This document shows, piece by piece, positions 14,201 to 51,638 of a stretch of 64,000 nucleotides of DNA. The first letter of the stretch is position 1. Every line of letters begins with the position of its first letter. The stretch comes from Elusimicrobiota bacterium (lineage in GTDB: Bacteria; Elusimicrobiota; Elusimicrobia; UBA1565; UBA9628). Both the position numbers and the translations under genes were made by a program. The notes beneath the pieces are model-generated. The model saw only the letters and a list, made by a program, of their open reading frames with translations. It ran no database searches and had not been told where the DNA came from. The DNA lies in assembly GCA_027451985.1 (NCBI GenBank), contig DAIDHS010000008.1, positions 10,840-74,839 of the forward strand, given 5' to 3'.

Positions 14201-17183
14201 CGTGGATGGTGCCGCTGGAGTCCTCAAGGCAGTTGGCGCCGCTGATTGAGCAGTTGGCGTTCTGGGAGAACGACGGATTGAGCGACCTCACGTAGCCGAA
14301 GTTGTCGCCCAGGCCGTCGTCGGGCTTCAAAACGCCCGTGCCGTAGAGGTCCTCCGAGTCGATGCGGCCGTTGTTGGCGCCGATGCGCAGGGAAAGGCTG
14401 CCCGGCGGATAGGTCGTGCCGCCGAAGGTGATGGCCGTTTGCGGGTAGTAGTAGAGCCAGCCGATGTCCTCGCCGGGATCCAAAACCCCGTTGCAGTTCA
14501 AGTCCTCGGTCTTGGCCGCGCCGGTGATGATGGTGCCGTTGGCGCAATAGAGTGTGGTGCCGCCCGTGCCGTCCATGTCGTCGCTGATGCCGCCCAGGCG
14601 GATGTTGAGGTAGTTGTTCGAGTTGTCTCCCAGCATGACGATTTGCAGGATGGTCTTCTGTGAGAAGTCTAGGCCCGTGGTGGAGAAGGGGAAGGTGATG
14701 GACTGCTCCTGGGAATAGGGATCGGAAAAGTCATACTTCAAGTCGAGCACGTTTTGGGTCTGCCCGGAGTTGGCCTGGGCGTTGGGGGTGATGTTTAGGA
14801 TGGGGACGCTTTCGTTATACCAGCTGAGTCTGTTCGGGTCGGTCGGCCCCGTGTCTGACGGATTGCCGGTGCATGCTGTGGTCAAATTGCCGCTCGCCGT
14901 GGGCGAGAGGCTGTTGCAGGTGGGGTTCGTGGCGATGTCCCACGAGCCGTAGAAGAGATCGGCGTCGTTCTCCTGCGAGATGCCCTCCATGTTGTCGATG
15001 ATGGCGTAGCTGTTCAAATTGAACTGCTGGCGGCTCTGCGCCACCTCGGCGCTCAAATTAGTGGCATGCAGGGCGCCGGGAATGACGTCTATGTCCTTGA
15101 GCGCCGTGTTGAAGTCGTAGACCATGAGGCTTTGCGACAAGTCGGTGATGTCGGGCGTGGTCGGGGACTTGGATCCGGCCTGGTAGAGGAGAGTCGTTCC
15201 GATGCTGAAGTGCCGGTTGAAGTCGTAGGACAGGCGTCCGCCCAGGAGCGAGGTGTTGGAGATGCCGCCGAAAGCGGCGACTTCGTAGCTGATGTCGATG
15301 GTCGAGTTGGGCTGGATGCGGTCGGGGTTGAAGAAGGTGATGAAGCCGCCGTTGTAGTCGATGTAGTAGTCCACGTTGCGGTTGAGCTTCTGGTTGTCCA
15401 GGAGCACGATTTCCGACTGCGGCACGATGTTGGGCTCCAAAGTGAAGGTCTTGAAGCGGTAGCTGAACTCCGCGTGGATGATGCGCTCGGAGATGGGCGT
15501 CTGGGCGTAAATCTGCGGGTCCACGGTGGCCGAGTCCCCGACCGCGGCGAAGGGCTGCTGCAGCTGGACGATGCCGTCGGCGAAATCCATGTTGATGGTC
15601 TGGGGGTAGATCTGCTGGGGGTTGAGGCTTGAGCCCACTTCGTTGCGCGTCGTCGGATCGAGCACTTTCAGGATGAAGTTGCCGTGGCCGTTGTCGTTGA
15701 CGATGTCGGTCTGGCCCAGGTTGTAGAAGGTCTTCATCTCCCGGTCCCAGCCGGATTCCGTAGGCGTGGAGATGTAGATGTCCCCGGAGGTCTTGATGAG
15801 CACGGGGCAGGGCAGGGTGTATCCGGCCGGAGCCGCGCCGATGACGCTGGTGGTCTGTCCCGTGCTGGGGTTGTCGTAGCACTGCGGCTGGCCTAGGGAG
15901 GCGTTGGTGGCCACGCTGCTGCTGGACGCCTCGACCGAGACGGTGTTCCCCGAGGCGTCCGTGAAGTCGACGGCCACCACGTCGCCCGGCTGGCGCGGCA
16001 CCCGGAACTGGATGGTGCCGTGGACGTAGTCCATGATGTAGTCCGAGCCCGGGGAGAGCTGGATGAAGCTGCCGGTGTAGGTGGAGCTGTGCACGGCCAG
16101 GTCCTCGGCCGTCAGGGTGACGTTGTTGGCGTTGACCTGGGTGATGTTCTGGTTGGAAAGGTAGACCCGCTCGCTGCCCTGCTTGATGGGCAGGCGCACC
16201 GAGTTTCCGAAGGTCAGGTCGTAGTAGGTGTAGCGGATGTAGGAGGTGTCCGGGAGGTCCTCGGTGACGAACTGGGTGTTGCCGACGAACTGCTTGGTGT
16301 GCGTGACGCCCTGCGTGCGGCTGGCAATCGCCGTAAAGCGCGCGCCCTTGTACTGGAAGTCGCCCCGGATGCCGAAGAGCTGCTTGTCGTAGGAGACGAA
16401 TTCTGTCGAGGGCAGGGACAAATCGATGTCGCCGAAGGAGACGTTCTGAACGACCTCGTTGGGGTCTCCGGTGTAGACCACCGAGATGTCCTGGTGGTTC
16501 TGCTGGGTGTCGTCGTAATCCACGTTGACGGTGATCTTGGGGCCGATTTTGCCCTGCATGCGCAGCTGCAGCTGCTGGTTGATCTGCAGCGCGTTGGTGA
16601 CCGCGGGCTGCCCGGTCGCGTTCTGGGAATGCAGGAAGCGCTTCTCGGTGTAGGATACCCCGACCACTTTGCGGCCCGTGACCGAGAGGCTGGTGCCGTA
16701 GGTGGGGAGTTCCAGCTCCGGCGGCGGAGGGTTGGGCACGCCGGTCGAGATGGCCAAGCCCTGCTGGGCGAAGAACTCGGCCTCCTGCTCGCGCAGCTCC
16801 TGCTGGTGCTCGCGCTGCTCCTCGTTCTGCCGCGCCGCGTTGTACTCCCTCTGCGTGTAGGCGATGGGCGGCAGGGTCTCGATGAACTTGGAGAAGCTCA
16901 CCGGCGCCGGGGCGCTGGCGCTTGAGGCGGGCTGCTCGAACAGGCTCGCGATGACCTCGGTTGACATCAGCACCATCGGCCCCGCATTCTTGATGGCCGC
17001 GGGCGAAACCTGGAGCACGGTCGGCGCGGACTGGGAGGAGCTCTGAACCGAGGAGCTTTGGGTCTGGCTTTGCTGTGGAGAGGAGAAGTCCGGGTCGTAG
17101 GGCGTCGAGAACTGCGCCCAAAGGACTGTTTGCGCGGGAAGATAAGATAAAGCCAGCAGCGCGGCGAAGGCCAGCCGGTGGCG
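11283..17183 (-). CDS. Giant (~1967 aa) outer-membrane protein with a signal peptide and a C-terminal beta-barrel signature (terminal aromatic F). Candidate SprA-like translocon or assembly protein, family unconfirmed.
   Basis: Likely GTG start at 17183 gives the signal peptide VLTRHRLAFAALLALSYLPAQTVLWA|QF. Composition is N/T/S/Q/Y/G-rich with alternating hydrophobic beta-strand patterning over ~1900 aa. The protein ends ...IQFGTNLTFQF, the BAM-type C-terminal motif. The track ORF extends to 17459 with no RBS or signal sequence there. Confidence 0.6.
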   Translation of the reverse strand, partial: RHRLAFAALLALSYLPAQTVLWAQFSTPYDPDFSSPQQSQTQSSSVQSSSQSAPTVLQVSPAAIKNAGPMVLMSTEVIASLFEQPASSASAPAPVSFSKFIETLPPIAYTQREYNAARQNEEQREHQQELREQEAEFFAQQGLAISTGVPNPPPPELELPTYGTSLSVTGRKVVGVSYTEKRFLHSQNATGQPAVTNALQINQQLQLRMQGKIGPKITVNVDYDDTQQNHQDISVVYTGDPNEVVQNVSFGDIDLSLPSTEFVSYDKQLFGIRGDFQYKGARFTAIASRTQGVTHTKQFVGNTQFVTEDLPDTSYIRYTYYDLTFGNSVRLPIKQGSERVYLSNQNITQVNANNVTLTAEDLAVHSSTYTGSFIQLSPGSDYIMDYVHGTIQFRVPRQPGDVVAVDFTDASGNTVSVEASSSSVATNASLGQPQCYDNPSTGQTTSVIGAAPAGYTLPCPVLIKTSGDIYISTPTESGWDREMKTFYNLGQTDIVNDNGHGNFILKVLDPTTRNEVGSSLNPQQIYPQTINMDFADGIVQLQQPFAAVGDSATVDPQIYAQTPISERIIHAEFSYRFKTFTLEPNIVPQSEIVLLDNQKLNRNVDYYIDYNGGFITFFNPDRIQPNSTIDISYEVAAFGGISNTSLLGGRLSYDFNRHFSIGTTLLYQAGSKSPTTPDITDLSQSLMVYDFNTALKDIDVIPGALHATNLSAEVAQSRQQFNLNSYAIIDNMEGISQENDADLFYGSWDIATNPTCNSLSPTASGNLTTACTGNPSDTGPTDPNRLSWYNESVPILNITPNAQANSGQTQNVLDLKYDFSDPYSQEQSITFPFSTTGLDFSQKTILQIVMLGDNSNNYLNIRLGGISDDMDGTGGTTLYCANGTIITGAAKTEDLNCNGVLDPGEDIGWLYYYPQTAITFGGTTYPPGSLSLRIGANNGRIDSEDLYGTGVLKPDDGLGDNFGYVRSLNPSFSQNANCSISGANCLEDSSGTIHDNIDFNGATTGPGWMVLDIPLNISTANASAWTNIKNITISVLHNDNDASSGILKFAKIAVLGQTWLNGSPIDPATNNPPIAGENMLIEPINNATNPNYIPIYNAGGDAEAVFNELYGSLANLQQQSNTQNVQEQALELQYNGLSVEEPQYNTTGSTVSAVVVTKRVFTPAIDMSQHQELDFLVYGNAQAGNSATCASGNADCHNNIFFLRAGTDQNFYEVDVPITFTGWKLIKVDQLLNAFRVAQSWSADGSDPPGTVIVSSGVPNLQQVSELVAGVKLSSYTFDANAQPTGPSQYWHLTAPPGGAVGAEGSESLYLDEIFLAKPVTRVGNAYDFQGDFSVPNWGTFGAKSRYVDRNFQTPTSVVSNQDNELDNAYMNVTRLRYFPMSFNVSRAVVNTPDVAQTGSLSNFVNLLQEGKVTTWNGSAQGTFNLGALPQVTLGYTRNVINYDLLGRTDDRQTYTSALQYGVPTQSHFLPRTVNLTYSYSKYSVNYNSLAVLEQPGNDNTTDITNTYGAKLDFVPWTGSSFDPNYALTTVTEKRQNFSSGQGQDFSYPLSLNQTAGFTSNFRINRWLNPQVNYNINTISQANVSTTSIVVGLSTYTFSYGDLQTITRNSNGAVTLPIDFSQIAPNSKLLKTLDIVNGYQLQDGDVWNNVERGLNPMGDLWIRSGLRPNNPAAILQTQTLQDTVNSTQRWLPLQNYGLKGRWAPLKTLSIANNYVYSMQRGQTTNTPSRVISTTLPDLLMNMSQLEQMLNTKSWMQNTQMDFRFTAHRTLTEGQSLATDQSYSMDLRSMLFRKYDSLISANIRNSNSSSLVADVNTQITGHQDATVQTTFNAGKFSLTPKVVYNHDTNENGLGVYSQNDTDVTPSLISRADISMPKGLYIPLLMKSPLLFINRVIWTNTLSMDYKYSPVTAANDFELFSYNTSADYQIAQNLRLTLNGAMAAQLDRYIKTNDYISIQFGTNLTFQF

Positions 17184-39711: not shown

Positions 39712-40475
39712 GGGGCCGGCTCGTAGCGGGTCGGCACGCGGGAGGGCATAATCGCGGGCAGTCGGAAATAGTCCGTGCGGCCGTTCCCGTCGCGGTCGTG
39801 GAAGCGCAGCGCGTCGCCGTTTAAGGGGAAGACCACGCCCGGGAACCACCCGCTGTCGATGACGTAGGAGAACACCTGCCCGGTGTTGGCGGTGATGAGG
39901 ATTTCGTTGGCCACGTGCCCCTCGTCCGGAGCGCTGCCGCTGGCGTCGATGTGCATGGCCCAGGTGTTGGGCAGGTTCAGATCGTCAAAGGCGGAGTCGA
40001 AGGTCTCGGCGATGGTGCGGCAGGGGCTGCGGGTGCCGGTGAAGGCCGCGCCCAGGAAGTGCCGGTTGATTTCGTTGGAGACGCAGGCGATGCGGTCCCA
40101 GGGCCGGGAAAATTCGGCCTTGCAGTCGTCCGCGATTTTGCGGGTCAAGGAATGGTCGACCGGGTCCAGTATGGCGTTGATCAGCGGGACCAGGGGGATG
40201 GGCAGGTCATAGAGATCGCTGGGAGGAGGCGGCAGGCTTTTGAAGCCGTACTCCTTCATCCGGTTTTTGAGCGTCCACGGATCGCCCACGCGCATGCGCA
40301 CGGAGGCGGGCGCCAATTTCACGTCCGCGAAACCGAGGCGCTTGGACGCCTGGGCGCGGACGCCGGCTTGGATGGAGTCGAGGCTCCGCGCAAACGAATC
40401 CGCGCGCGCGGGCTGCCCCGGCCAGAACAGCGCGGCGGCGGCCAGAACCTGAAGAATCGGCGCGGGCCTTTTCAT
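39708..40475 (-). CDS. Secreted hypothetical protein (255 aa) with a candidate Cys/His/Asp arrangement. Possibly a transglutaminase-like cysteine proteinase (BTLCP-like). Unconfirmed.
   Basis: Signal peptide MKRPAPILQVLAAAALFWPGQPARA. Candidate triad SPCRT...GHVANEILIT...VIDSGW. Start ATG overlaps the ICMT stop as ATGA. Confidence 0.5.
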   Translation of the reverse strand: MKRPAPILQVLAAAALFWPGQPARADSFARSLDSIQAGVRAQASKRLGFADVKLAPASVRMRVGDPWTLKNRMKEYGFKSLPPPPSDLYDLPIPLVPLINAILDPVDHSLTRKIADDCKAEFSRPWDRIACVSNEINRHFLGAAFTGTRSPCRTIAETFDSAFDDLNLPNTWAMHIDASGSAPDEGHVANEILITANTGQVFSYVIDSGWFPGVVFPLNGDALRFHDRDGNGRTDYFRLPAIMPSRVPTRYEPAP

Positions 40476-41140
40476 GCGGTTTTCTTTTTCGCCAGGCCCC
40501 ACGCTCCTCGGATGATCAGGCCCGCAGCGATGGGAATCCACAGGTCGTGGGGGCGCTCCGTGACGCAGAACGCGAGCATTCCGGCGAAGAAGCTCCAGGA
40601 AAAAATCTCGCCGGCGAAAGCCTGGCCCCAGCGCGGCTTGAGTCCTCCGGGGGGAACCTTCGGGCGAAGCGAGGGGACGATGCGCGGCACCCTGCGGCAG
40701 AACTCCCGGTAGCCTTGGCCCTGTGCCGCGGCGATGTGCGCCTCCTCGCGGCCCATGAGCCGGACGGTGATGACGATCATGCCGGCCGTGAGGATCCAGA
40801 AGCCGGAGCGGGACGCCGCCATCCCGAGCCCGGCGGCGATGAAGATGGTGCCCAGATAGAGCGGGTTGCGCAGGTGCCGGTAGGGTCCGTCCGCCACCAA
40901 AGCGTCTGAGTGCAGGGCCCGGTCGTGCACCACCTCCGAGTCGAGGTACGCGGCGGCCCAGGTGCGAAGAACTGCGGCCGCAAAAGTCAGAGCCGCGCCC
41001 AAAGGCAGGACCCAGCCTCCCACGGCTTCGGCCATGGGCACGGGATCGATGGCGTAAAGCGAAAAGGCCAGCCAGAACAGCGCGCCGATAATCCAGAAGC
41101 GGTTCTTGAACTCGAATTCGGTCGCGGCGGAGGCGCTCAC
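40472..41140 (-). CDS. Isoprenylcysteine carboxyl methyltransferase (ICMT/Ste14) / phospholipid methyltransferase-family membrane methyltransferase
   Basis: GPYRHLRNPLYLG and GREEAHIAAAQGQGYREF are the ICMT C-terminal catalytic motifs. About 5 transmembrane segments. 222 aa. Confidence 0.7.
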   Translation of the reverse strand: MSASAATEFEFKNRFWIIGALFWLAFSLYAIDPVPMAEAVGGWVLPLGAALTFAAAVLRTWAAAYLDSEVVHDRALHSDALVADGPYRHLRNPLYLGTIFIAAGLGMAASRSGFWILTAGMIVITVRLMGREEAHIAAAQGQGYREFCRRVPRIVPSLRPKVPPGGLKPRWGQAFAGEIFSWSFFAGMLAFCVTERPHDLWIPIAAGLIIRGAWGLAKKKTA

Positions 41141-41223
41141 GCAAGATAGAATAACAAGGCTGTTTTCGACGGGGAAGGGCCTTTGGGGGGCGGATTTAAG
41201 GGCTAAGGGGCCCAGCCGCGAGG

Positions 41224-42324
41224 TTAGAATGCGGCCAGTTCCAGATACTGCCCCGCGGCCATGCTGAGGCCCCTCTCGCAGGACAAGAACGGGCTCTTGT
41301 ATGGTGCGCCCTCGTCATTGACCGCTTCGACGATTTGGCCGAGGCGCCGGAACAAATTTTCAACGGCCGCGCGCCGGGCCGAAACGTCGCGCCCATGCCG
41401 TTTGAGGCCGTTGAGGGCCATGAGCCCCAGGTGCGGCCAGCGGCTCAAGTGGTAGCCGCCCGTCAGGCGCGTCAAAAAGGGAATGTGCGCCGCTTCTCGC
41501 GCGACGGCGCAGCGCATGGGGATGGGGTCGAGCAGCCCCGAGCCTTCAAGCCAGTCGGCCAGGCGCTTGCGCGCGTCTGCAGGGCCAAGGCCCAGGTAGA
41601 GCGCCAAGACCGCGCCATCGGCGCTCGCCGCCTCGCTTTGATGCGCGTCAGCGAGGTGGCTGCCCCGCCATCGGCGCTCGAACAAGGCGGCCTCCATCCG
41701 ATGGGCGTCGTGGCGAGGGCGCAGGCCTAAATCGGGAGCCAGGCGCAGCATCATGAGCGCGCAGAGATTGTTGTAGGTGGAGGACGGCCGGCGCACGGTG
41801 TCGACCCAGTCGCCTTTCACGCGGGGGGCGATGAGACCGTCCTCGAAGTGGCTTTCTTCGTACGAGTCCAGCAGCGACTGCAGGGCGCGCCGTCGCGGGG
41901 CATCCGGCTCTCGGCCGGTTTTCTCCCGCCGTAAGGCGTGCGCGAAGACGAGCCACGGCAGGCCGTCGGCGCGCGGCCAGGGCATGTCGAAGCCGCGGCC
42001 GCCGCGAAAGCAGGAGGGGACATGGCCCAGACGGGCCGATTCGTCCGTCATGAAGCCGATGAGGCCTGAGAGATAATCCTCAGGCAGGGCGGTCCATGCG
42101 CCGCGCAGGGACTTGCCGAAGTCCGCCGTCCACATGAAATGGAAATGCCCGCTGCCGGCCCAAAGCTCTTCGCGCGCGTTTGCGCGCAGGGCCGCGCGGG
42201 CCAAGTCCGCGGGCTCGCCCTCCTGTTTGGGCCAGCCTAAAAGCGCCAGGCGCCACGAATCGACGGCGTTTAAGGCCAGCGACTCGAACATGCGCGCCGT
42301 GATCGCGTATGGGCCGATGTTCAT
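41224..42324 (-). CDS. Hypothetical protein, possibly a six-hairpin (alpha/alpha)6 glycosidase-like enzyme (GH63/GDE_C-like)
   Basis: 366 aa, soluble. GDWVDT and YLSGLIGFMTDE are reminiscent of (alpha/alpha)6-barrel glycosidases. Recognition is weak. Confidence 0.4.
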   Translation of the reverse strand: MNIGPYAITARMFESLALNAVDSWRLALLGWPKQEGEPADLARAALRANAREELWAGSGHFHFMWTADFGKSLRGAWTALPEDYLSGLIGFMTDESARLGHVPSCFRGGRGFDMPWPRADGLPWLVFAHALRREKTGREPDAPRRRALQSLLDSYEESHFEDGLIAPRVKGDWVDTVRRPSSTYNNLCALMMLRLAPDLGLRPRHDAHRMEAALFERRWRGSHLADAHQSEAASADGAVLALYLGLGPADARKRLADWLEGSGLLDPIPMRCAVAREAAHIPFLTRLTGGYHLSRWPHLGLMALNGLKRHGRDVSARRAAVENLFRRLGQIVEAVNDEGAPYKSPFLSCERGLSMAAGQYLELAAF

Positions 42325-42339
42325 GCGGGAGGCGGCGGA

Positions 42340-43440
42340 TCAGCTCAAGGCTTTGTAAAGGAAAGGCAGGCTCTTGTCCATTCGGTAGTCGACGTCGGAG
42401 TGGTTGTCGTCGAACTCCTCGTAGACGTGGCGGGCGCCGGCCTCGGAGAGCCTCTGCGAGAGGATGCGCATGCCGTAATGGATGTGGTACTGGTCTCTCC
42501 AGCCGCAGTCGAGGTAGATCCCGCGCATGGACTTGAGGCTCTGGCGGTAGCGGGAAACAAGGCGAATCGGATCGTGCGCCTGCCAATGCCGCCAGCGCTC
42601 GGGCAGCGCCTCTCCCGACTCCATGTTGAAGGGCACGCGAAATCCAAGCGGCGCCTTGGGATCCGGGTCGTAGGTGGCCGCCATGCAGAGGTTCATGATG
42701 GCGTGGCCCTCGGCGCCCGAGACTTTCTCCCGGCTCCAGACGCTGCGCAAAAAACGCTTGATGCGCCCGTCATCGAGTCCTTGCGCGAGGCCGCCGCGCC
42801 AGGCTTCTTTGCGCGCGTCGTAGGCGCCCGGCCGGCGTTTGGGGGCGCGGTGCTTGGCCAGTTCGTTCAAGGTGTTGGCCCAGTCGTTCCAGTAGACGAA
42901 GTCGAAGTAGGCGTCGCCCGAGTGATCCGCGATTGCGCCCCAGTATTTGGCGTACTGCATGGCGTGGATGATGGCGCCGTAGCCACCCGAGGACTTGCCG
43001 AAGCAGCCGCGGTGGCGGCGGTCCGCCAGCGTGCGGAACTTGCCGTCTATGAAGGGGATGATTTCGCGCGTCAAATAGTCCGCGTAGCGGCCCACGGCCG
43101 AGGAATTGACGTACTGGTTGCCGCCTAGGGCCGTGAAGCAGTCCGGAAAAACCAGGATGACCGGCCCCATCTTTTTTTCATGGATGAGCCTGGCCGCGCG
43201 CTCGGGCACGTTGTCGCCGAATGCCTTCCAGCCCACGTGGAAAAGCCCGGAGCCGGTGAATCCCACCAAATCGTAGAGAACGGGATAGCGCCGGCCGGGG
43301 TTTTTCTCGTAATCCGGCGGCAGCCACACCGCGAGCTTGCGCTCGTGCGGATCGCCCCAAGGGTTGCCCTTTAAGACCTGAGAGCGGTGATCGAGGACGA
43401 CGAGTATTCCGGCGGGGCCTTTGGGACGCTTCAAAGCCAT
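42340..43440 (-). CDS. Putative esterase (esterase D / enterochelin-esterase-like alpha/beta hydrolase)
   Basis: GKSSGGYGA contains GxSxG. Size and layout match the PF00756-type esterase. ATG at 43440 gives MALKRPKG. 16 nt downstream of the previous gene. Confidence 0.6.
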   Translation of the reverse strand: MALKRPKGPAGILVVLDHRSQVLKGNPWGDPHERKLAVWLPPDYEKNPGRRYPVLYDLVGFTGSGLFHVGWKAFGDNVPERAARLIHEKKMGPVILVFPDCFTALGGNQYVNSSAVGRYADYLTREIIPFIDGKFRTLADRRHRGCFGKSSGGYGAIIHAMQYAKYWGAIADHSGDAYFDFVYWNDWANTLNELAKHRAPKRRPGAYDARKEAWRGGLAQGLDDGRIKRFLRSVWSREKVSGAEGHAIMNLCMAATYDPDPKAPLGFRVPFNMESGEALPERWRHWQAHDPIRLVSRYRQSLKSMRGIYLDCGWRDQYHIHYGMRILSQRLSEAGARHVYEEFDDNHSDVDYRMDKSLPFLYKALS

Positions 43441-43576
43441 GACGCCTAATTTAACATTAAACAGGCCTAAAGTCCCAAAAAGCTGCGGGCCAAAAGGCGG
43501 CCAAAGACGGCCTGCTATGCCCATTCGAAGCTGGACTTAAATATCGATACTTCCTAATTAAGGATTTAATGGCGTC

Positions 43577-44732: not shown

Positions 44733-46925
44733 CTATTTCAGGGAAGAAAAGACGCGGATGAGCGGTCCGCTGAGAAGATAAAGTCCGACCACGGCGGGCA
44801 GAACAAGCGGCGGATAGCCCAGGAAAGTCACGGCCGCGCTGACGATGCAGGCCGCGAGAAGAGGGACGAAGAGCGCTTTGGCGCCGCCTTTCTTGAAGGC
44901 CGGATAAGGAAGCCTGGATACCATGGCCGAGGCAGCGACTAAGGTCATGGCCGCCAGCGCGAGCGGGGCGTGGGCCAGGAAAAGAGCCGCGACCGAGACG
45001 ACGCCGGCGCCCGCGGGGATGGGCATGCCGGTGAAATAGTCGCCTTTCTTCGCGCCGGCAGCTTCGTCGTGGGCCGCGTCTTTCCCGGCTTTGGCCGAGA
45101 CGTTGAAACGAGCCAGGCGCCAAGCGCCTGCCGCGGCGAACGCCGCCGCGACGGGAAAGCCCGCCCAGCCGAGAGCCGGGAGGAGCGCCGCCTTGAAGGC
45201 CAAAAAGGCCGGGGCCGCGCCGAAGGAGACCATGTCCGCCAACGAGTCCAAATCAACGCCCAGGGGATTGCGGGCCTTGAGCATGCGGGCGACGCGGCCG
45301 TCGAACATGTCGAAGACCGCCGCCGCGCCGATGGCCAGGGCGGCGGGAGCGAAGAGTCCCTGCGAGGCCAGGACGAACGCGAGCAGGCCGGAGCTAAGAT
45401 TCATGAGCGTCAAGGCATTGGGCGCGGCCGCGCGCCAATTCAAGGAGCGCTTGGCCGCGGCCGGAGCGGCCGGGGTTTGCGCCGGCGCCTCTTGCGGCGC
45501 CGCAGGCGCGGCGGTTTGCCCGCGCCCAGGCACGTTGTAGAGGCCGGGTCGGTGGCTCTGCACGAAATCATAGGCGGCGTAGGGCATCAGGGCGTGGTTG
45601 CCGGTGCGCACCAGAGTTGAGGAGGCTTCGAAGGGAATCGGCGGCAGGAAGTGAACCTGCATCCTGGTCGGCACGTGCTCCTCGCCGCCGTCGCGCGCGA
45701 TGAAGATGGCCTCGACCGAGTGATGGGAGGCGTCGAAGCCCAGGGCCGGGTCGCCGGCGTTCTTTTCCAGCTTGGGCAGTGTGTCGGGGTTGCCCTTCTT
45801 GTCCGTCAGGCGGTAGTGGTCGCCGCCGACCAGGTAGAAGGCCTTGACGCGGCGCCCGGCGTTCAGCGCGAGGATGCGGAACAAGTTGGTCTCGCCGTCA
45901 TAGTTGGTGCCCACGGCGATGGGAGAATACTCGAAGAACGGGGCGAAGGCGTCCAGGACCGCGCGGCCCATGGGGTGGCGGAAATCGGAGGGAGTCATGC
46001 TGGGCTTGCGCGGATCGTCGCCGGCCAGGACGTAAACGACCTTGTCGAGGCCGAAAGCGGCGATGGCGCGCAGACCGATGAGGAGATGCCCCCACTGGAA
46101 CGGGTCGGCGGCGACGGGATAGATGCCGACGCGCATTTCGCGGTCTTGCGGAGCGGCTTGAGGGGCCTTCGCCGAAGCGCGCAGCGTCCCGCGCGGATCG
46201 ATTTTACCCGCGGCCATGTCGCGGGCAATGTGGCCCAGCAAATCGTCGCCCTCGGCGCGGACCTGGCTTAAAATGGGGCGGTCGGCGGGCTCCAGGTGAC
46301 GCATGGCGTCCAATTGGGCGTGGAGCGCGCGGCGCACGCGGCCGATAATCTGCGCGCGCTCGGCCGACGGAATGGCCGAGGGCGCCTGCGCGCTTTCGCT
46401 TTCGAAGGCCTGCTCGAGTTCCGCAAAATTCCGCTTGAGGACTTTTTCCTCGCGCGGGCCGGGGTTGAGCGCGGTAGTGCCTTCGGCGGAGGGGTCGGCG
46501 GGAAAGTTCTTGGCCGCCTCTTTTGCGGCCGGAAGCGGCGTTTTGTTCTGAGAAATTTCGACGGACCCGCTTGGCACGGCGGCTTGCCGCGGCAGGCTCT
46601 GCGCGGCCGCAGGCGCTGCGGCCCTTTCTGCCGGTGCGGCCGCCGCGTTCTCCGGAAGCCGGGGCGCCTCGGCCGCCGCCTGCAAATCGGAAAAGGGAAG
46701 GGAAAGCTGGGAGAAATCTCCGGACAGCGTCTGAATGCTTCCGATTTGAGGCAGCGCGCCCGGCAGAGCGGAAGCGCCGCCGAACTCCGCCGCGGGAACG
46801 CCGCCGTCTTCGGCTGCGGCCCCGGCCCAAGACGGGGGAGGAACAAGGGAGAAGACGATGGCCAGCGCGATCGCGCAAGCCAGGGTTTTCTTAAGTTTCT
46901 CGATCCGCGATTCCAGATGCTTCAT
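44733..46925 (-). CDS. Fusion protein: N-terminal membrane anchor, ~250-aa Ala/Pro-rich region, NadD-like (NaMN adenylyltransferase family) nucleotidyltransferase domain, and a C-terminal CDP-alcohol phosphatidyltransferase domain
   Basis: GIYPVAADPFQWGHL is the (H/T)xGH nucleotidyltransferase motif. EASSTLVR matches the ISSTxxR motif. The C-terminal DMFDGRVARMLKARNPLGVDLDSLADMVS is the CDP-OH phosphotransferase signature D-G-x2-A-R-x8-G-x3-D-x3-D, within multiple transmembrane segments. Confidence 0.65.
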   Translation of the reverse strand: MKHLESRIEKLKKTLACAIALAIVFSLVPPPSWAGAAAEDGGVPAAEFGGASALPGALPQIGSIQTLSGDFSQLSLPFSDLQAAAEAPRLPENAAAAPAERAAAPAAAQSLPRQAAVPSGSVEISQNKTPLPAAKEAAKNFPADPSAEGTTALNPGPREEKVLKRNFAELEQAFESESAQAPSAIPSAERAQIIGRVRRALHAQLDAMRHLEPADRPILSQVRAEGDDLLGHIARDMAAGKIDPRGTLRASAKAPQAAPQDREMRVGIYPVAADPFQWGHLLIGLRAIAAFGLDKVVYVLAGDDPRKPSMTPSDFRHPMGRAVLDAFAPFFEYSPIAVGTNYDGETNLFRILALNAGRRVKAFYLVGGDHYRLTDKKGNPDTLPKLEKNAGDPALGFDASHHSVEAIFIARDGGEEHVPTRMQVHFLPPIPFEASSTLVRTGNHALMPYAAYDFVQSHRPGLYNVPGRGQTAAPAAPQEAPAQTPAAPAAAKRSLNWRAAAPNALTLMNLSSGLLAFVLASQGLFAPAALAIGAAAVFDMFDGRVARMLKARNPLGVDLDSLADMVSFGAAPAFLAFKAALLPALGWAGFPVAAAFAAAGAWRLARFNVSAKAGKDAAHDEAAGAKKGDYFTGMPIPAGAGVVSVAALFLAHAPLALAAMTLVAASAMVSRLPYPAFKKGGAKALFVPLLAACIVSAAVTFLGYPPLVLPAVVGLYLLSGPLIRVFSSLK

Positions 46926-47073
46926 CCTAAATACACTATGCCACAGAACGGGCGTTCAAACCAGGGCCCTTGGGGCCTTCGGAGACTGGGTCTCCCGGGG
47001 CAGCGGCCGTTCTCCTTTCAAATGCCAAGTTAAAGCACTTGGCAGTTCTTAACTGTATAATAACGGCGTCAAT

Positions 47074-47478
47074 ATGGATGAAGCGAAGGCCCTGACGGTG
47101 CTCATCGCGGACGACGATCCGGTCATCTGCAGAATGCTGGAACACGCCCTCCAAAAGCGGCGGATCAACGCGCTGAGCGCCGATTCTATTTCCGCGGTTG
47201 AGGCGGCGCTCAAGACAGGAAAGCCCGACGCGGCGCTCATCGATCTGGTGCTGGGACAAGACAGCGGCTGGGAGGCCTTGAGCGTTCTTCGTCGGCATAG
47301 CCGGATTCCTGTGATATTGATGACGGGCGGCGCCGTCAATGAGGAAACCGAGAAGGATGCCAAGCTGCTGGGCGCCCAGGCCGTGGTCTCGAAGCCGTTT
47401 GAAGTTGCCGAGATCGTCCGCCTCCTGTCTGATTTGTTTGGGAAATTCCCTCCGCCGCTCCTCCCGCCGCAGGCTTAA
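47074..47478 (+). CDS. Single-domain response regulator (CheY-like receiver)
   Basis: LIADDD, the phospho-acceptor region ALIDLVLGQDSGW and VVSKPF. 134 aa. Confidence 0.8.
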   Translation: MDEAKALTVLIADDDPVICRMLEHALQKRRINALSADSISAVEAALKTGKPDAALIDLVLGQDSGWEALSVLRRHSRIPVILMTGGAVNEETEKDAKLLGAQAVVSKPFEVAEIVRLLSDLFGKFPPPLLPPQA

Positions 47479-47581
47479 GCCGGATTTAAGCGGCCGGTAA
47501 CTTCGCCAACAGCTGCCGGGGCCACACTTCCAGATGAAGGCGCAAAGCAGGGGCGCCTCGAAGAATCCTGGAGGTGGAAAA

Positions 47582-48028
47582 ATGAAAGCGAAACTGGCGA
47601 TGCTGGCGGGGTTGGGGCTCATGGCGGGGTTGGCGGCGTGCAGCGGGGTCAACAGCCGGGTCAAGAACGGGGAAGTGGAGAGCGTCATCAACCAGAAACC
47701 CGATCATGGCGGTTATTTCGAGGCCATCGGCATCGGCGCCTCCGATCCGTCCTTGCCGACCCAGACCCAAAGAATGGCCTTGGCGCGCGACGCGGCCATT
47801 GTGAAGGCCCAGTACGAACTGCTGTCCATGATCAAGGGTGTGGAGTTGGAGGGCGGCGTGACGGTCAAGCAGGCGATGGAATCGGACTCCACCCTGCAGG
47901 CCAAACTCGACGAGGTCATCCGCGGCGCGGAAATCGTCAAAAGCGAGTTTACGTCTGATAATGGCTGCGTGGTGACCATGCGTCTGCCCAAGAGCAGCTT
48001 GAAGAAGATCATGGGGGCGAACTTCTAA
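47582..48028 (+). CDS. LPP20/FlgP-like outer-membrane lipoprotein
   Basis: Lipobox MKAKLAMLAGLGLMAGLAACSG. The mature domain is Ala/Val-rich with the LPP20 patterning (ARDAAIVKAQYELLSMIKGVELEGGVTV). GGAGGTGG RBS. Confidence 0.55.
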   Translation: MKAKLAMLAGLGLMAGLAACSGVNSRVKNGEVESVINQKPDHGGYFEAIGIGASDPSLPTQTQRMALARDAAIVKAQYELLSMIKGVELEGGVTVKQAMESDSTLQAKLDEVIRGAEIVKSEFTSDNGCVVTMRLPKSSLKKIMGANF

Positions 48029-48915
48029 TGAGCTTTCGGGCACGCTCTCTTGTCTTGCCGATCCTGGGATTTTTCGCGGGCTGCGCCTCCCTGCCTCGGG
48101 AAGGCGCGGCGCCGGGGCCCAAGATGGCGGAAGTCGAAGCCTCGGGCTGGGCGCCAGCCGGTCGCGGCGCGGCGCCGGGAGCGTGCCGTCGCGCCGTGGC
48201 CGATGCTCAATCTCGGGCGATCGGAAAAGCCGCGGGCGTCCTTGTCTTGGCCCGGACCAGGGTCGAGGACGGCGTGGCCCTGGGGCAGGAAATCACGGCA
48301 GACGCCCGGGGTGTCATCCGCCGCTACGGCGTGCTTGATGAGAACTTTGTGGGCGGAGCCTGCCGCGTCCGCATCCGCGCCCTGGTGGAGATTCCCGGCC
48401 CGGGCCAAGAACCCGGGCGGGACGCGTCTTGGCCTGTTCCGCCGCACACGCGCGTCGTGGTGGAGATGCGGGCGCAGGAGCCGCAGGCCGAAGCCTGGAT
48501 TCGAGAGGCCGATGCGGCCGCGGCGGCACAGCTCGCGGCGCACGGCTTCGAAGTCGTGGCGGATTCCTCGCCGGACGCCGGGTTTTTTGCTTGGACCGTT
48601 CAAGGCCGGGTGGCGGCCTACCACATCAAAGACGCTCAACTCGGCGCGTTCGTCTCTTATCGCGGCGTGGTCAGCGCGGAAATCCTGTCGCCGGCGGGAG
48701 TATCTCCCATTTGGAAAAAATCGTTGGAAGCGCCCGCGCTGGGGCTCGACGCCGCTCAAACCGCGGCGCAGGCCGCGCAAAACGCCGCGGCGCAGGCCGG
48801 CAAGGCCGCGGCGCAGGCGTTGGTCGCTCATTTGGCAAATTCGTTGCTAAACTCATCGTTCATAACCTACAATCTGGGACGGAATGCCTTCCAAAATCCT
48901 GGTCATCGACGATGA
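48028..48915 (+). CDS. Lipoprotein with an LPP20-like N-domain plus a second TolB-N/CsgG-clan-like domain
   Basis: Lipobox LVLPILGFFAGCAS. AVADAQSRAIGKAAGVLVLARTRVEDG region. Start overlaps the upstream stop as TAATG. Confidence 0.5.
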   Translation: MSFRARSLVLPILGFFAGCASLPREGAAPGPKMAEVEASGWAPAGRGAAPGACRRAVADAQSRAIGKAAGVLVLARTRVEDGVALGQEITADARGVIRRYGVLDENFVGGACRVRIRALVEIPGPGQEPGRDASWPVPPHTRVVVEMRAQEPQAEAWIREADAAAAAQLAAHGFEVVADSSPDAGFFAWTVQGRVAAYHIKDAQLGAFVSYRGVVSAEILSPAGVSPIWKKSLEAPALGLDAAQTAAQAAQNAAAQAGKAAAQALVAHLANSLLNSSFITYNLGRNAFQNPGHRR

Positions 48916-49576
48916 GCGCAAGATCCTCGACATCGTCAAGAAATACCTGACCGAGCACGGCTATTCGGTCGTGGTGACCGATAATGGTTCCGAGGGCCTT
49001 ATGCTGACCCGGGAATCCGAGCTAGATCTCATTCTGAGCGATGTGGAGATGCCTGACCTCGACGGCCGCGCCGTCTGCCGCGTCATTAAAAAAGAAGCCT
49101 CCAGCCGGCAGATTCCCGTCATCCTGATGTCCGGCGCGCGCACCGACGACAAGGATATCCTCTCGGGGTTCGAGGGCGGCGCCGACGACTACGTCACCAA
49201 GCCCTTTTCCTTGCCGGTGCTCTTGGCGCGCATCCAGGCGGTTCTGCGGCGCTACAGCGCGTCCGCGGCCATGGAGAAAAAGCTCAAGAAGCGCGGCATC
49301 GAGCTCGATCCGGCCGGCAGGACCGTTTCGGTCGACGGGAAATCGGTGTCCCTGACTCGCAAGGAATTCGATTTGCTTTCTCTCCTTATTGAAAAGGCCG
49401 GCCGTGTCCTCAGCGTCACCTACCTGCTCGAGACCGTCTGGGGCTACGATCCGGCCGACTACAACGACCCGGGGACCGTCGAGGTCCACGTCTCCCACCT
49501 GCGCAAGAAGCTGGGCTCCAAGGCCGCCAAGCACATCGTCAACGTGCTGGGCCACGGCTACAAGTTCGAAGAATAG
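48884..49576 (+). CDS. OmpR-family response regulator (receiver plus winged-helix DNA-binding domain)
   Basis: ILVIDDE, DLILSDVEMPDLDG and ADDYVTKPF in the receiver domain. C-terminal LTRKEFDLLSLL...VWGYD is the trans_reg_C domain. Confidence 0.85.
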   Translation: MPSKILVIDDERKILDIVKKYLTEHGYSVVVTDNGSEGLMLTRESELDLILSDVEMPDLDGRAVCRVIKKEASSRQIPVILMSGARTDDKDILSGFEGGADDYVTKPFSLPVLLARIQAVLRRYSASAAMEKKLKKRGIELDPAGRTVSVDGKSVSLTRKEFDLLSLLIEKAGRVLSVTYLLETVWGYDPADYNDPGTVEVHVSHLRKKLGSKAAKHIVNVLGHGYKFEE

Positions 49577-49669
49577 CCCTCTGAATTAAGCCGGAGTTAA
49601 GACGCCCTTATCCCGCGCGACAGCGCCGCCCGCTATCCTGAGGGCATGAACGTAGACGGCGGAGGGCTT

Positions 49670-50674
49670 ATGAAAAGAGCGAAAGAGAGCAGCGTCATCG
49701 CGGCCGCAGTCTTGGCATGCGCGCCGCTTTCCCGCGCGGGCGGCTTCGAGGCCATGGCCAAGACTCTGTCCTACGCGGCGCGGGGCGCGGGAATTTCCCA
49801 AGTGGCGGTCGTCCCCTTCTCCTCCGTGGATGGGCAGCCCGGCGACGACGGCCGGGTCATCTCCGAGAACCTTATCACCCGAATGGTGCACCTGGGCAAG
49901 GTTTCCGTGGTGGAGCGCTCCATGATTAAGAAGCTCATGGCCGAAGACCTTCTGGATCAAACCGGAGCCGTGGCGCCTTCCTCCGTGCAGGAGCCGGGCA
50001 AAATGCTCGCGGCTAAAGGCATCGTGACCGGCACCTTCCACGACACCGGCGACGGCGTGATAGTCAACGCGCGGCTCATCGATGTGGAGACCGGCGTCAT
50101 CTTAGCGGCCGCGGAGCGCGAGGTCGACGAAAATCAGTTTGGGGATTCCTCCAGCGCGGGTTTCGGCGGGGAGGGAGGGACCATCTGGGTGGCCGCGCCT
50201 CGATTAACCGTGCCCGCGCCGGCTTTTCCACCGGATCGGCAGGACGACATCAGGGGCGCCTTGGCCGAGGCGTCCGCTCCGCAGACCGCACCCCCGCCTG
50301 CCGATCCGGCGTCGCTTCCCGGAATGGCCGACGCTTCGGCGGCCGGCCAGGAGGACGCCGCCCTGCAGGACGGCTGCGCGGACGCCGCCGCACGGGTGGA
50401 CAAGATGGAGGCGCGCATCCTGGAAATCAAGGCCCGCTATTGGGCTGGGCGGCTGCGCGACGGATTGTCGCCTGAGAGCCTCAGAATCAATCCCGGCTCG
50501 ATGATTTCGGATCCGGCGCTCAAGAAGGAGTTCTTCTCCCGCCTGGAGTACTGGTACCACCAAGATCGCATTCCCAGGCTGAGCTCCGGCGAGGCGCGGC
50601 GCCTGGTCGCCATGGATGGGGAGGCTTACTCTATCTACAACGACTGCGGGAGCCGGCTGGCCTTGGCGCAATAA
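49670..50674 (+). CDS. Exported, possibly lipidated, protein with a FlgO/CsgG/TolB-N-clan periplasmic domain and a C-terminal domain of unknown function
   Basis: Signal peptide MKRAKESSVIAAAVLAC. VAVVPFSSVDG...RSMIKKLMAEDLL...GIVTGTFHDTGDGVIVNARLIDVETGVI has the characteristic patterning of this clan. GGAGGG RBS before ATG 49670. Confidence 0.45.
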   Translation: MKRAKESSVIAAAVLACAPLSRAGGFEAMAKTLSYAARGAGISQVAVVPFSSVDGQPGDDGRVISENLITRMVHLGKVSVVERSMIKKLMAEDLLDQTGAVAPSSVQEPGKMLAAKGIVTGTFHDTGDGVIVNARLIDVETGVILAAAEREVDENQFGDSSSAGFGGEGGTIWVAAPRLTVPAPAFPPDRQDDIRGALAEASAPQTAPPPADPASLPGMADASAAGQEDAALQDGCADAAARVDKMEARILEIKARYWAGRLRDGLSPESLRINPGSMISDPALKKEFFSRLEYWYHQDRIPRLSSGEARRLVAMDGEAYSIYNDCGSRLALAQ

Positions 50675-50697: not shown

Positions 50698-51638
50698 ATG
50701 AAAAACAGGATTCTGGTGGCGGATGACGAGCCTCTGGTGCAGAATATCGTGGCCAAGACATTCGCGGGTGAGTCGTATGAAATTATCCGGGCCGATAACG
50801 GTGTGGACGCGCTGGCTTTGGCGGTGCGGGAGAATCCCGACTTGATGATCACGGACGTGTGCATGCCGGGGAAAACCGGTTGGGAAGTCCTCGAGGAGAT
50901 GCACCGTAATCCGCGCACGCGCCTCATTCCCATCATCATGCTGACCGGCATGGGGGTCACCTCGGAGGATGAGGTGCGCGGCCTTGAGGCCGGAGCCGAC
51001 GAGTATATCGCCAAGCCGTTTACGCCTTCGGAACTTCGGGCCAGGGCCCAGTGCCTTCTTCGCCGCTGCCGGCTCGATCTTTCCGTCAATCCGCTGACAC
51101 GACTGCCCGGCAGCCCCAGTATTGAGGATGAGGTCGAGCGGCGCATTCGCGAGGGCCGCTCCTTTTCCTTCCTATACGCCGACATCGACAACTTCAAGCC
51201 CTACAACGACGTCTACGGATTCGCGGCCGGCGACGCCGTCATTCGAGAGACGGCTTCCATCTTTATGGCGAGCACCGCGGCCGAGGTTCCGAGAGGAAGC
51301 TTCGTGGGCCATATCGGCGGTGATGATTTCGTGGTTGTGGCAGACGCGGAACACGCCTCCCAAGCGGCGCGCACGGCCGCCGCTCGTTTCGATGGAGCCG
51401 TTCCGGTTTTTACAGGAGCGAGGATGTGCGCCGCGGCTTCATCGAGACCGCAGATCGGCAAGGCCGCCTGCGACGTTTTCCGCTTCTGTCCCTTTCCATT
51501 GGGGGAGTCAACTGCCCGCAGCGCCGGTTTAAGCGCTACGCGCAGGTCGTGGAAGTCGCCGCGGAGATGAAGGCCTACTGCAAGACGCTCAATTTCCGGG
51601 GTTTGAGCCGCTTCGCCTTCGACCGGCGGGCCGCCTAA
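50698..51638 (+). CDS. Response regulator with a C-terminal GGDEF-type domain (GGDDF variant), interrupted by a frameshift near a T5 run around 51407-51411. Either a pseudogene or a homopolymer sequencing error.
   Basis: REC motifs ILVADDE, DLMITDVCMPGKTGW and ADEYIAKPF. Then LYADIDNFKPYNDVYGFAAGD and GHIGGDDFVVVAD in frame A up to about 51410. The conserved downstream motifs FPLLSLSIGGV and VAAEMKAYCK continue only in another frame (ORF 51426..51638). Confidence 0.6.

Follow-up and report, generated by a model that had tools for sequence, protein, structure and literature searches.

A clade-restricted Elusimicrobiota protein joining a PssA-type phosphatidylserine synthase to a NadD-derived nucleotidyltransferase-like module

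The 64,000-nucleotide stretch of Elusimicrobiota DNA analysed here (contig DAIDHS010000008.1 of assembly GCA_027451985.1, positions 10,840 to 74,839; hereafter the window) carries on its minus strand an open reading frame (ORF) for a 730-aa protein in which two recognisable enzyme folds are joined: an N-terminal module resembling NadD, the nicotinate mononucleotide (NaMN) adenylyltransferase, and a C-terminal integral-membrane domain of the CDP-alcohol phosphotransferase family. The ORF runs from an ATG at 46925, the earliest candidate start after an in-frame TGA, to a stop codon at 44733-44735. An original prediction, made from the sequence of the window, had described such a fusion behind a membrane anchor and a long Ala/Pro-rich linker; the linker is present, and all the motifs on which that prediction drew were found (DPFQWGH at residues 274-280, GGDHYRL, EASSTLVR at residues 433-440, and DGRVARx8Gx3Dx3D at 45234-45302).

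The same single-ORF fusion occurs in three other species-level metagenome-assembled genomes (MAGs) of Elusimicrobiota (loci L009, L010 and L004, the last being the same as L011), where the module is 87-91% identical to that of the window gene and the membrane domain 71-81% identical. These three genomes contribute contigs JAGWJU010000084, DATLSD010000069 and DATLUA010000006. Nei-Gojobori dN/dS values against these three orthologues are 0.13-0.15 for the module, 0.25-0.30 for the membrane domain and 0.42-0.45 for the leader plus linker, so that both halves of the fusion are under purifying selection. The gene thus encodes one polypeptide and is not a frameshift artefact that merges two separate genes, since the same ORF recurs, under purifying selection, in three other species. 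An exact-sequence look-up of the 730-aa protein returned no record, and in a literature search on Elusimicrobia phosphatidylserine (PS) synthases, or on a cytidylyltransferase fused to a CDP-alcohol phosphotransferase, only structure papers on PIP synthase (PIPS) and on PS synthase (PSS) were relevant; the domain arrangement is new. The layout of the gene is given in Table 1.

Table 1. Features of the fusion gene, with the genes syntenic with it in the last row (positions in the window)
Feature	Residues	Position	Strand	Basis or remark
Whole fusion gene		44733..46925	-	730 codons + stop; orthologous single ORFs in L009, L010, L004/L011
Leader	1-35	46821..46925	-	Basic N-tail, 25-residue uncharged hydrophobic stretch, SWA/GA site
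Ala/Pro-rich low-complexity linker	36-164	46434..46820	-	dN/dS 0.42-0.45
Helical hairpin before Rossmann core	~165-240	46206..46433	-	AF2 helices, conservation
NadD-fold nucleotidyltransferase core	~262-478	45492..46142	-	Foldseek, PDB profile matches, alignment to E. coli NadD (EcNadD)
QWGH (HxGH equivalent)	277-280	46086..46097	-	Family alignment
ASSTLVR (ISSTxxR equivalent)	434-440	45606..45626	-	Aligned to EcNadD ISATIIR
Inter-domain Ala/Pro-rich linker	~479-498	45432..45491	-	Low pLDDT in two-domain model
Predicted PssA-type phosphatidylserine synthase domain	499-730	44736..45431	-	Horizontal helix + 8 transmembrane helices
CDP-alcohol phosphotransferase signature DGRVARMLKARNPLGVDLDSLAD	542-564	45234..45302	-	Maps onto MjPSS D44, R49, D62, S63, D66
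Syntenic genes (context only)		40472..43524	-	Esterase 42340-43524; 366-aa protein 41224-42324; PEMT-family methyltransferase 40472-41140

In the whole fusion protein Pfam detects the C-terminal CDP-OH_P_transf domain alone (PF01066, residues 501-662, E 1e-16, 62.1 bits against a cutoff of 22) and this, with the full DGxxARx8Gx3Dx3D signature, bears out its assignment as a CDP-alcohol phosphotransferase. The top NCBIfam model is that of PssA (TIGR00473), which is matched over its full length (1-153 of 153) at 99.6 bits, narrowly missing its curated cutoff of 107. The closest relatives of the domain, at 55-60% identity, are stand-alone Elusimicrobiota proteins of 370-400 aa annotated as CDP-diacylglycerol-serine O-phosphatidyltransferase, followed at about 40% by canonical 220-300-aa PssAs from Sporomusa, Myxococcales and Bradyrhizobium. 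Searched against the PDB, the domain sequence matches solely the PSS structures of Methanocaldococcus jannaschii (MjPSS; E 1.7e-11), and the same structures (7POW and 7B1K) are the best structural matches of a two-domain AlphaFold model of the fusion (TM-score 0.73-0.76), with no DIPPS, AF2299 or PIPS entry among the top 50.

The residues important in MjPSS are the catalytic and metal-binding aspartates, R49, the Ser1-site residues D62, S63, D66 and F105, and R101 and R104 of a chloride network (PMC8633023). When the C-terminal domain is aligned to 7POW, MjPSS D41, D44, R49, D62, S63, D66, R101, R104 and F105 all have identical counterparts, carried in the segments FDMFDGRVAR, GVDLDSLAD and GAWRLARF (the Arg-Arg-Phe segment included); all the residues which bind CDP-diacylglycerol, metals and serine in MjPSS are kept. 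The model also reproduces the MjPSS architecture, with eight transmembrane (TM) helices, an N-terminal horizontal helix and the two short cytoplasmic beta-strands (E466-468 and E509-511). The domain is, by homology, a serine-specific, CDP-diacylglycerol-dependent, PssA-type (type-II) PS synthase, whose catalysis we predict from that relationship. The fusion differs from canonical PssAs in some 500 extra N-terminal residues (leader, Ala/Pro linker and NadD-like module); canonical PssAs also lack the leader and the linker of about 100-130 aa, both of which are carried by the unfused Elusimicrobiota orthologues.

CDP-diacylglycerol is supplied in bacteria by the integral-membrane enzyme CdsA. Since the domain is of the PssA type and keeps the MjPSS residues, its donor would be CDP-diacylglycerol, which is not made by a soluble NadD-like enzyme. 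A motif scan of the 64-kb window for canonical nadD, psd and cdsA genes found none of them, and the window has neither a second pssA nor a further NadD-like signature. One unfused PssA orthologue (L001) has an extra C-terminal multi-TM domain of about 200 aa after PssA (L001:13971-14570, minus strand) with the motif GDAASPLVG...RSVDGTAAGF; by eye this looks like a phytol/dolichol-kinase or CdsA-like domain, a suspicion for which Pfam and PDB searches gave no match.

The structure of the N-terminal module was predicted with AlphaFold2 (AF2) from an alignment of its family, giving a confident model (predicted local distance difference test, pLDDT, 92.7; predicted template-modelling score, pTM, 0.89) in which a long helical hairpin packs on a Rossmann core. 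The hairpin (helices H23-47 and H49-74 in module numbering, pLDDT 96-98) is specific to the module family, being absent from NadD, and is kept in the short forms that have no signal peptide. A Foldseek search of the PDB with this model returned NadD structures for all of the top 50 matches (E down to 2e-8, TM-score 0.7-0.78, about 20% identity), none being of the other members of PF01467, and NadD was likewise the only significant sequence-profile match in the PDB (E about 1e-3). The prediction that the N-terminal domain has a NadD-like HIGH-motif nucleotidyltransferase fold is therefore upheld by both searches. Pfam CTP_transf_like gave no match above threshold on the fusion protein, and the NCBIfam models for NadD are weak, at 27.5 bits against 150 for NF000840 (the NadD equivalog) and 13.2 against 112.45 for TIGR00482.

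A global profile alignment of the module to EcNadD (E 5e-5, 192 columns) locates what has been kept and what has changed. Kept, as in the NadD structures 1K4K, 1KAQ and 3E27, are the HxGH position, the PPHR motif (here DPRK), GxD, the ISAT-IR motif (here SSTLVR) and the NadD-specific C-terminal LxP...Y...GLY tail, in which the module is unlike the RfaE/TagD group. The HxGH, RK, GxD and SST-R motifs are conserved across phyla in the module family; W278, H280, G367, D369, H370, Y371, S436 and R440 are invariant, and A434 and S435 at least 90% conserved. Changed is the segment after GxD, where EcNadD carries W117 and Y118, residues which we take to form the pyridine-nucleotide pocket in a segment that contacts the nicotinate ring. 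There the T-W-Y of EcNadD aligns, with low confidence at that point, to K-G-N inside a conserved family insertion, HYRLxDKxGNPDTLPKLE. The placing of this domain with NadD thus stands as regards its fold, which is closest to NadD, and falls as regards the equivalog models and the pyridine-pocket segment: to judge from these comparisons the module is NadD-derived, yet not an ordinary NadD. Because the pyridine pocket is replaced, its substrate is probably something other than NaMN.

An exhaustive profile search for the module found 578 clusters at E <= 1e-3 and 160 at E <= 1e-30; clusters were counted at 50% identity and the figure for the family is a lower bound (at least 578). The family is large, unnamed and uncharacterised, and neither Pfam nor NCBIfam has a model dedicated to it. 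Its members take three forms. The first comprises Elusimicrobiota proteins of 400-460 aa with leader, Ala/Pro linker and module. The second is leaderless proteins of about 300 aa from Desulfobacterota, Syntrophorhabdales, Omnitrophota and one Pseudomonadota MAG, some of which have been automatically named NaMN adenylyltransferase by JGI. The third is giant proteins, 1,000-7,700 aa long, in which the module occurs one to seven times; among them are the multi-enzyme proteins P0178, P0188, P0190, P0222, P0191, P0214, P0265 and P0285 (1,700-7,700 aa, one to seven copies).

Domains that share a giant protein with the module are phosphoglucomutase/phosphomannomutase (PGM/PMM, in four proteins), GT20, GT4, GT5, UDPGP, a GlpX-type FBPase, PIG-L, a sulfatase-type domain, an APH-type kinase and kinases of the cytidylate, guanylate and uridine types. 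The theme common to these proteins is, as read from their domains, sugar-phosphate and nucleotide-sugar metabolism. RfaE domain II is a HIGH-family enzyme which adenylylates heptose-1-phosphate, and this domain of RfaE/HldE belongs, with TagD, CCT/ECT and PPAT, to the superfamily shared with the module (PF01467); these members show that the fold lends itself to the activation of sugar-1-phosphates or head-group phosphates, in keeping with the module's sugar-phosphate partners elsewhere. From the domain co-occurrence and the analogy with RfaE domain II, a sugar phosphate is our leading guess for the module's substrate.

Within Elusimicrobiota, partners other than PssA were single cases: a histidine phosphatase (P0016), an MFS-like 12-TM domain (P0040) and an extra C-terminal domain in P0052. 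The P0016 arrangement, module plus His_Phos_1, mirrors the adjacency of nadD and cobC in E. coli K-12 (L054:3297-4573), cobC being of the histidine-phosphatase family. The P0052 domain had seemed by eye ADP-ribosyltransferase-like (an R-S-E pattern), an idea dropped when Pfam and the PDB gave it no support. When the ORFs within 7 kb of the module were clustered over 50 loci, no conserved neighbour of the stand-alone module emerged, the clusters consisting of generic response regulators and a subclade-specific secG-pgk-gap synteny and nothing else. The genomic contexts of the signal-less forms are heterogeneous (MGS-like, IMPase-family, giant ORF) and no operon logic was found in them.

The leader of the fusion protein has a basic N-tail, MKHLESRIEKLKK, followed by the uncharged stretch, which contains PPP, and the SWA/GA site (Table 1); net charge is +3 in the N-tail and -3 in the C-flank. 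About 50 of 55 family members, judged by eye and with simple statistics, have a leader with a short basic n-region, an h-region of 10-14 residues and an AxA site; leaders of the fusion clade have a more basic N-tail and a longer uncharged stretch (21-26 residues). The membrane anchor of the original prediction exists as a hydrophobic N-terminus, which resembles a Sec signal peptide, or a signal anchor, more than a simple membrane anchor. Similar leaders, often with 'AVVE', are found on the stand-alone Elusimicrobiota PssA orthologues (P0056-P0071; L001:13971-15860, minus strand), in which a 30-66-residue uncharged stretch of AP-S/A-L repeats lies inside the linker. In about 680 kb of Elusimicrobiota DNA only three other proteins with leader plus linker were found, none with a recognisable domain.

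In the MjPSS crystal structure both termini and the active site are cytoplasmic (PMC8633023), and the K/R-rich segments of the PssA domain in the fusion all lie on one, cytoplasmic, side. A cytoplasmic N-terminus of PssA implies that the module which precedes it in the fusion should likewise lie in the cytoplasm. In P0040 the module follows an MFS-like domain of about 12 TM helices ending in a K/R cluster (the TM count being partly by eye). The leader conflicts with the orientation of PssA, and this means that either: the leader fails to export what follows it; or the PssA domain, and the MFS domain of P0040, are inverted. Export might be avoided through a re-entrant or monotopic insertion, through pairing of the leader with the hydrophobic repeat stretch in a hairpin, or through a leaderless isoform. 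A sigma-70-like promoter match falls within the gene, ahead of the part that encodes the Rossmann core (46201-46228, minus strand; TTGCCC-16-TAAAAT, 9/12), and an internal start near it could yield such an isoform.

We propose that the window gene is a clade-restricted fusion of a PssA with a NadD-derived enzyme which acts independently of it, a reading which, taken as a whole, we consider somewhat probable. The C-terminal 232 residues would be the type-II PS synthase of the lineage, converting CDP-diacylglycerol and L-serine to phosphatidylserine and CMP, by homology at the cytoplasmic face of the inner membrane. The module, whose catalytic motifs are intact, most likely still catalyses the reaction of a nucleoside triphosphate (NTP) with a phospho-substrate to give the nucleoside-monophosphate-linked substrate and pyrophosphate. 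The two enzymes, joined by a flexible Ala/Pro linker, would probably act independently, with the module simply held at the membrane beside PssA and not supplying its donor. The fusion probably arose when the similar Ala/Pro-rich N-terminal linkers which both families carry in this phylum recombined.

Several points weigh against this proposal. To our knowledge no enzymatic activity has been reported for the module family, and the sugar-phosphate idea draws on some 20 large fusions. In the window protein, as in most of its Elusimicrobiota relatives, Gln takes the place of the first His of HxGH (across the family, 175 proteins have HWGH or HWAH and 52 have QWGH or QWAH). The retention of the fusion under selection in four species may mean that there is real functional coupling between its halves. 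The Sec-like leader of nearly all Elusimicrobiota module proteins predicts export to a compartment free of NTPs, and the linkers of the fusion clade contain no second TM-like stretch (KD19 0.75-1.3; maximum 0.75 in the window protein). A second such stretch is plausible in most of the PssA orthologues (KD19 1.5-1.96) and borderline in the module family; a hidden second TM helix as a general answer to the topology conflict was rejected, as it is missing from the fusion clade linker.

The leader lends itself to a different explanation, in which it is a working Sec signal or an N-in anchor, and the linker and NadD-like domain are periplasmic and tethered to the outer face of the membrane. There the fold would act without NTPs, its role being for instance to bind or cleave a dinucleotide or nucleotide-sugar outside the cell. 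The n-h-c pattern with AxA in the family resembles that of the genuine signal peptide encoded by the GH113 gene nearby, linkers rich in Ala, Pro and Ser are typical of exported proteins, the change of His to Gln in HxGH falls mainly within the signal-bearing subfamily, and the histidine phosphatase of P0016 could act on nucleotides outside the cell. Yet a PssA domain with its N-terminus outside would be an inverted form of an enzyme which in the crystal structure has its termini and its active site facing the cytoplasm (PMC8633023); the domain is conserved, its positive-inside bias fits the normal orientation, the module of P0040 comes after an MFS-like domain that ends in a K/R cluster, and the remainder of the module's active site is identical to that of signal-less, presumably cytoplasmic, relatives. 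We think export unlikely, while giving it more weight than the substrate-feeding, regulatory and housekeeping-NadD readings below. Because the PssA half has been conserved and keeps its site intact, and because the module's site is the same as in its leaderless relatives, a cytoplasmic module in the fusion appears about twice as likely as an exported one.

A more far-reaching idea, to which we likewise give a low though appreciable probability, is that the module represents a new class of nucleotidyltransferase with a new substrate (for example a sugar phosphate or head-group phosphate), or an envelope-side chemistry, coupled to PS synthesis. The signal-like leader would re-target the module to the membrane or envelope where, with the PS synthase, it would build or remodel an unusual envelope lipid in the fusion clade; alternatively, were it to act at the outer face, it would be the first exported HIGH-motif nucleotidyltransferase.

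Coupling of a direct kind had been foreseen in the original prediction, whereby the N-terminal domain makes an NDP-activated phospho-compound and the C-terminal domain transfers the phospho-compound to a lipid or solute, after the logic of the bifunctional IPCT-DIPPS enzymes (CTP:inositol-1-phosphate cytidylyltransferase / di-myo-inositol-phosphate-phosphate synthase, AF2299-type). CDP-serine, -ethanolamine, -glycerol or -inositol could serve as the activated compound, and the Kennedy pathway follows a comparable scheme. The domain order, a soluble nucleotidyltransferase and then a membrane CDP-alcohol phosphotransferase, does parallel IPCT-DIPPS (PMC8633023) and the fusion is under purifying selection; one giant relative joins the module to a cytidylate kinase and an APH-type kinase, and the HIGH superfamily (PF01467) has the cytidylyltransferases of the Kennedy pathway among its textbook members. 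The likeness to IPCT-DIPPS is one of domain order only: IPCT, whose fold is that of the sugar nucleotidyltransferases, makes the donor used by a six-TM DIPPS, whereas the fusion has instead an eight-TM PssA with a site for CDP-diacylglycerol and serine, orthologous to unfused PssAs. The best structural match of this domain is PSS, not DIPPS or PIPS, the NCBIfam DIPPS model (NF041135) scores 10 bits against 580, and NadD, to which the module is most closely related, is an adenylyltransferase and not a cytidylyltransferase.

The pairing of the two domains is also rare. The CDP-alcohol motif was found in only four of the 300 retrieved module-bearing proteins, all of them from the fusion clade. 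Among 45 loci from species-representative genomes, inspected with flanks of up to 10 kb on each side (some contigs being shorter), PssA was found near the module in the fusion clade and at one further locus only, where it lies on the opposite strand at a distance of about 3 kb; some 35 other Elusimicrobiota loci had no PssA within these flanks. Both domains are confidently predicted in the two-domain model, but residues 477-493 have pLDDT below 50 and the pTM is 0.58, which, as far as the model goes, indicates a flexible tether and not a docked IPCT-DIPPS-like pair. Since PssA uses CDP-diacylglycerol from CdsA and has an intact serine site, and since the fusion is rare, being confined to one small clade, and is predicted without docking, neither the feeding of substrate from one half to the other nor an IPCT-DIPPS-like linkage finds support, and we consider this mechanism quite improbable.

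The module might instead be a non-enzymatic, regulatory nucleotide-binding domain which senses NAD, ATP or CTP status and tunes PssA; this we regard as more doubtful again. Replacement of the first His of HxGH would suit such a role, as would a flexible tether beside the horizontal helix, deletion of which leaves 8% of PSS activity (PMC8633023). All other catalytic-motif residues, on the other hand, are invariant and are shared with relatives that carry HWGH, the module is overwhelmingly a stand-alone protein, and a dN/dS of 0.13 fits an enzyme at least equally well. That the module is the housekeeping NadD, so that NAD synthesis would be bound to the membrane and to PS synthesis as the original prediction had considered, is highly improbable, for although the fold and GLY tail, the JGI annotation of short relatives and the nadD-cobC-like fusion in P0016 speak for it, the module scores far below the NadD cutoffs, the W-Y pocket is replaced, a signal-like leader is carried, and up to seven copies in giant proteins and a patchy distribution are unlike an essential gene.

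Turning to the surroundings of the PssA-module fusion, the three genes downstream of it (Table 1) are syntenic with it in L004, L009 and L010. This synteny was seen in close relatives only and is weak evidence of functional linkage; the PEMT genes may hint at phospholipid head-group metabolism. A weak PEMT match lies also 3 kb from P0016, in L005. On the other side, a divergent intergenic region of 148 bp separates the fusion gene from a response-regulator gene (47074-47478) and contains an 8-bp inverted repeat, TGCCAAGT-N6-ACTTGGCA, at 47023-47044, which could be an operator. Beyond it, on the plus strand at 47534-50674, lie genes for a lipoprotein-like protein, a 295-aa protein and a FlgO/CsgG-like protein, with which three response-regulator genes are interleaved (47074-47478, 48884-49576 and 50698-51570, the last with GGDEF). 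Elsewhere in the window, at about 12000-16000 on the minus strand, an open frame of about 2,059 codons has an unusual composition (GC skew about +0.20, AT skew about -0.18).

If the conservative reading is true, that of a PssA and a NadD-derived enzyme acting side by side, the window gene unites two recognisable enzyme folds in one clade-specific fusion and is of little wider consequence. The module itself belongs to a NadD-derived family of at least 578 clusters which some pipelines mis-annotate as NaMN adenylyltransferase, and whose active site is strongly conserved across phyla; its substrate, once defined, could show a new route to a nucleotide-activated metabolite. In Elusimicrobiota both the module family and the housekeeping PssA carry a signal-like leader and an Ala/Pro linker before domains which are expected to be cytoplasmic. 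Resolving that topology would show either an unusual membrane-tethering device or an unexpected envelope-side chemistry in this poorly studied phylum.

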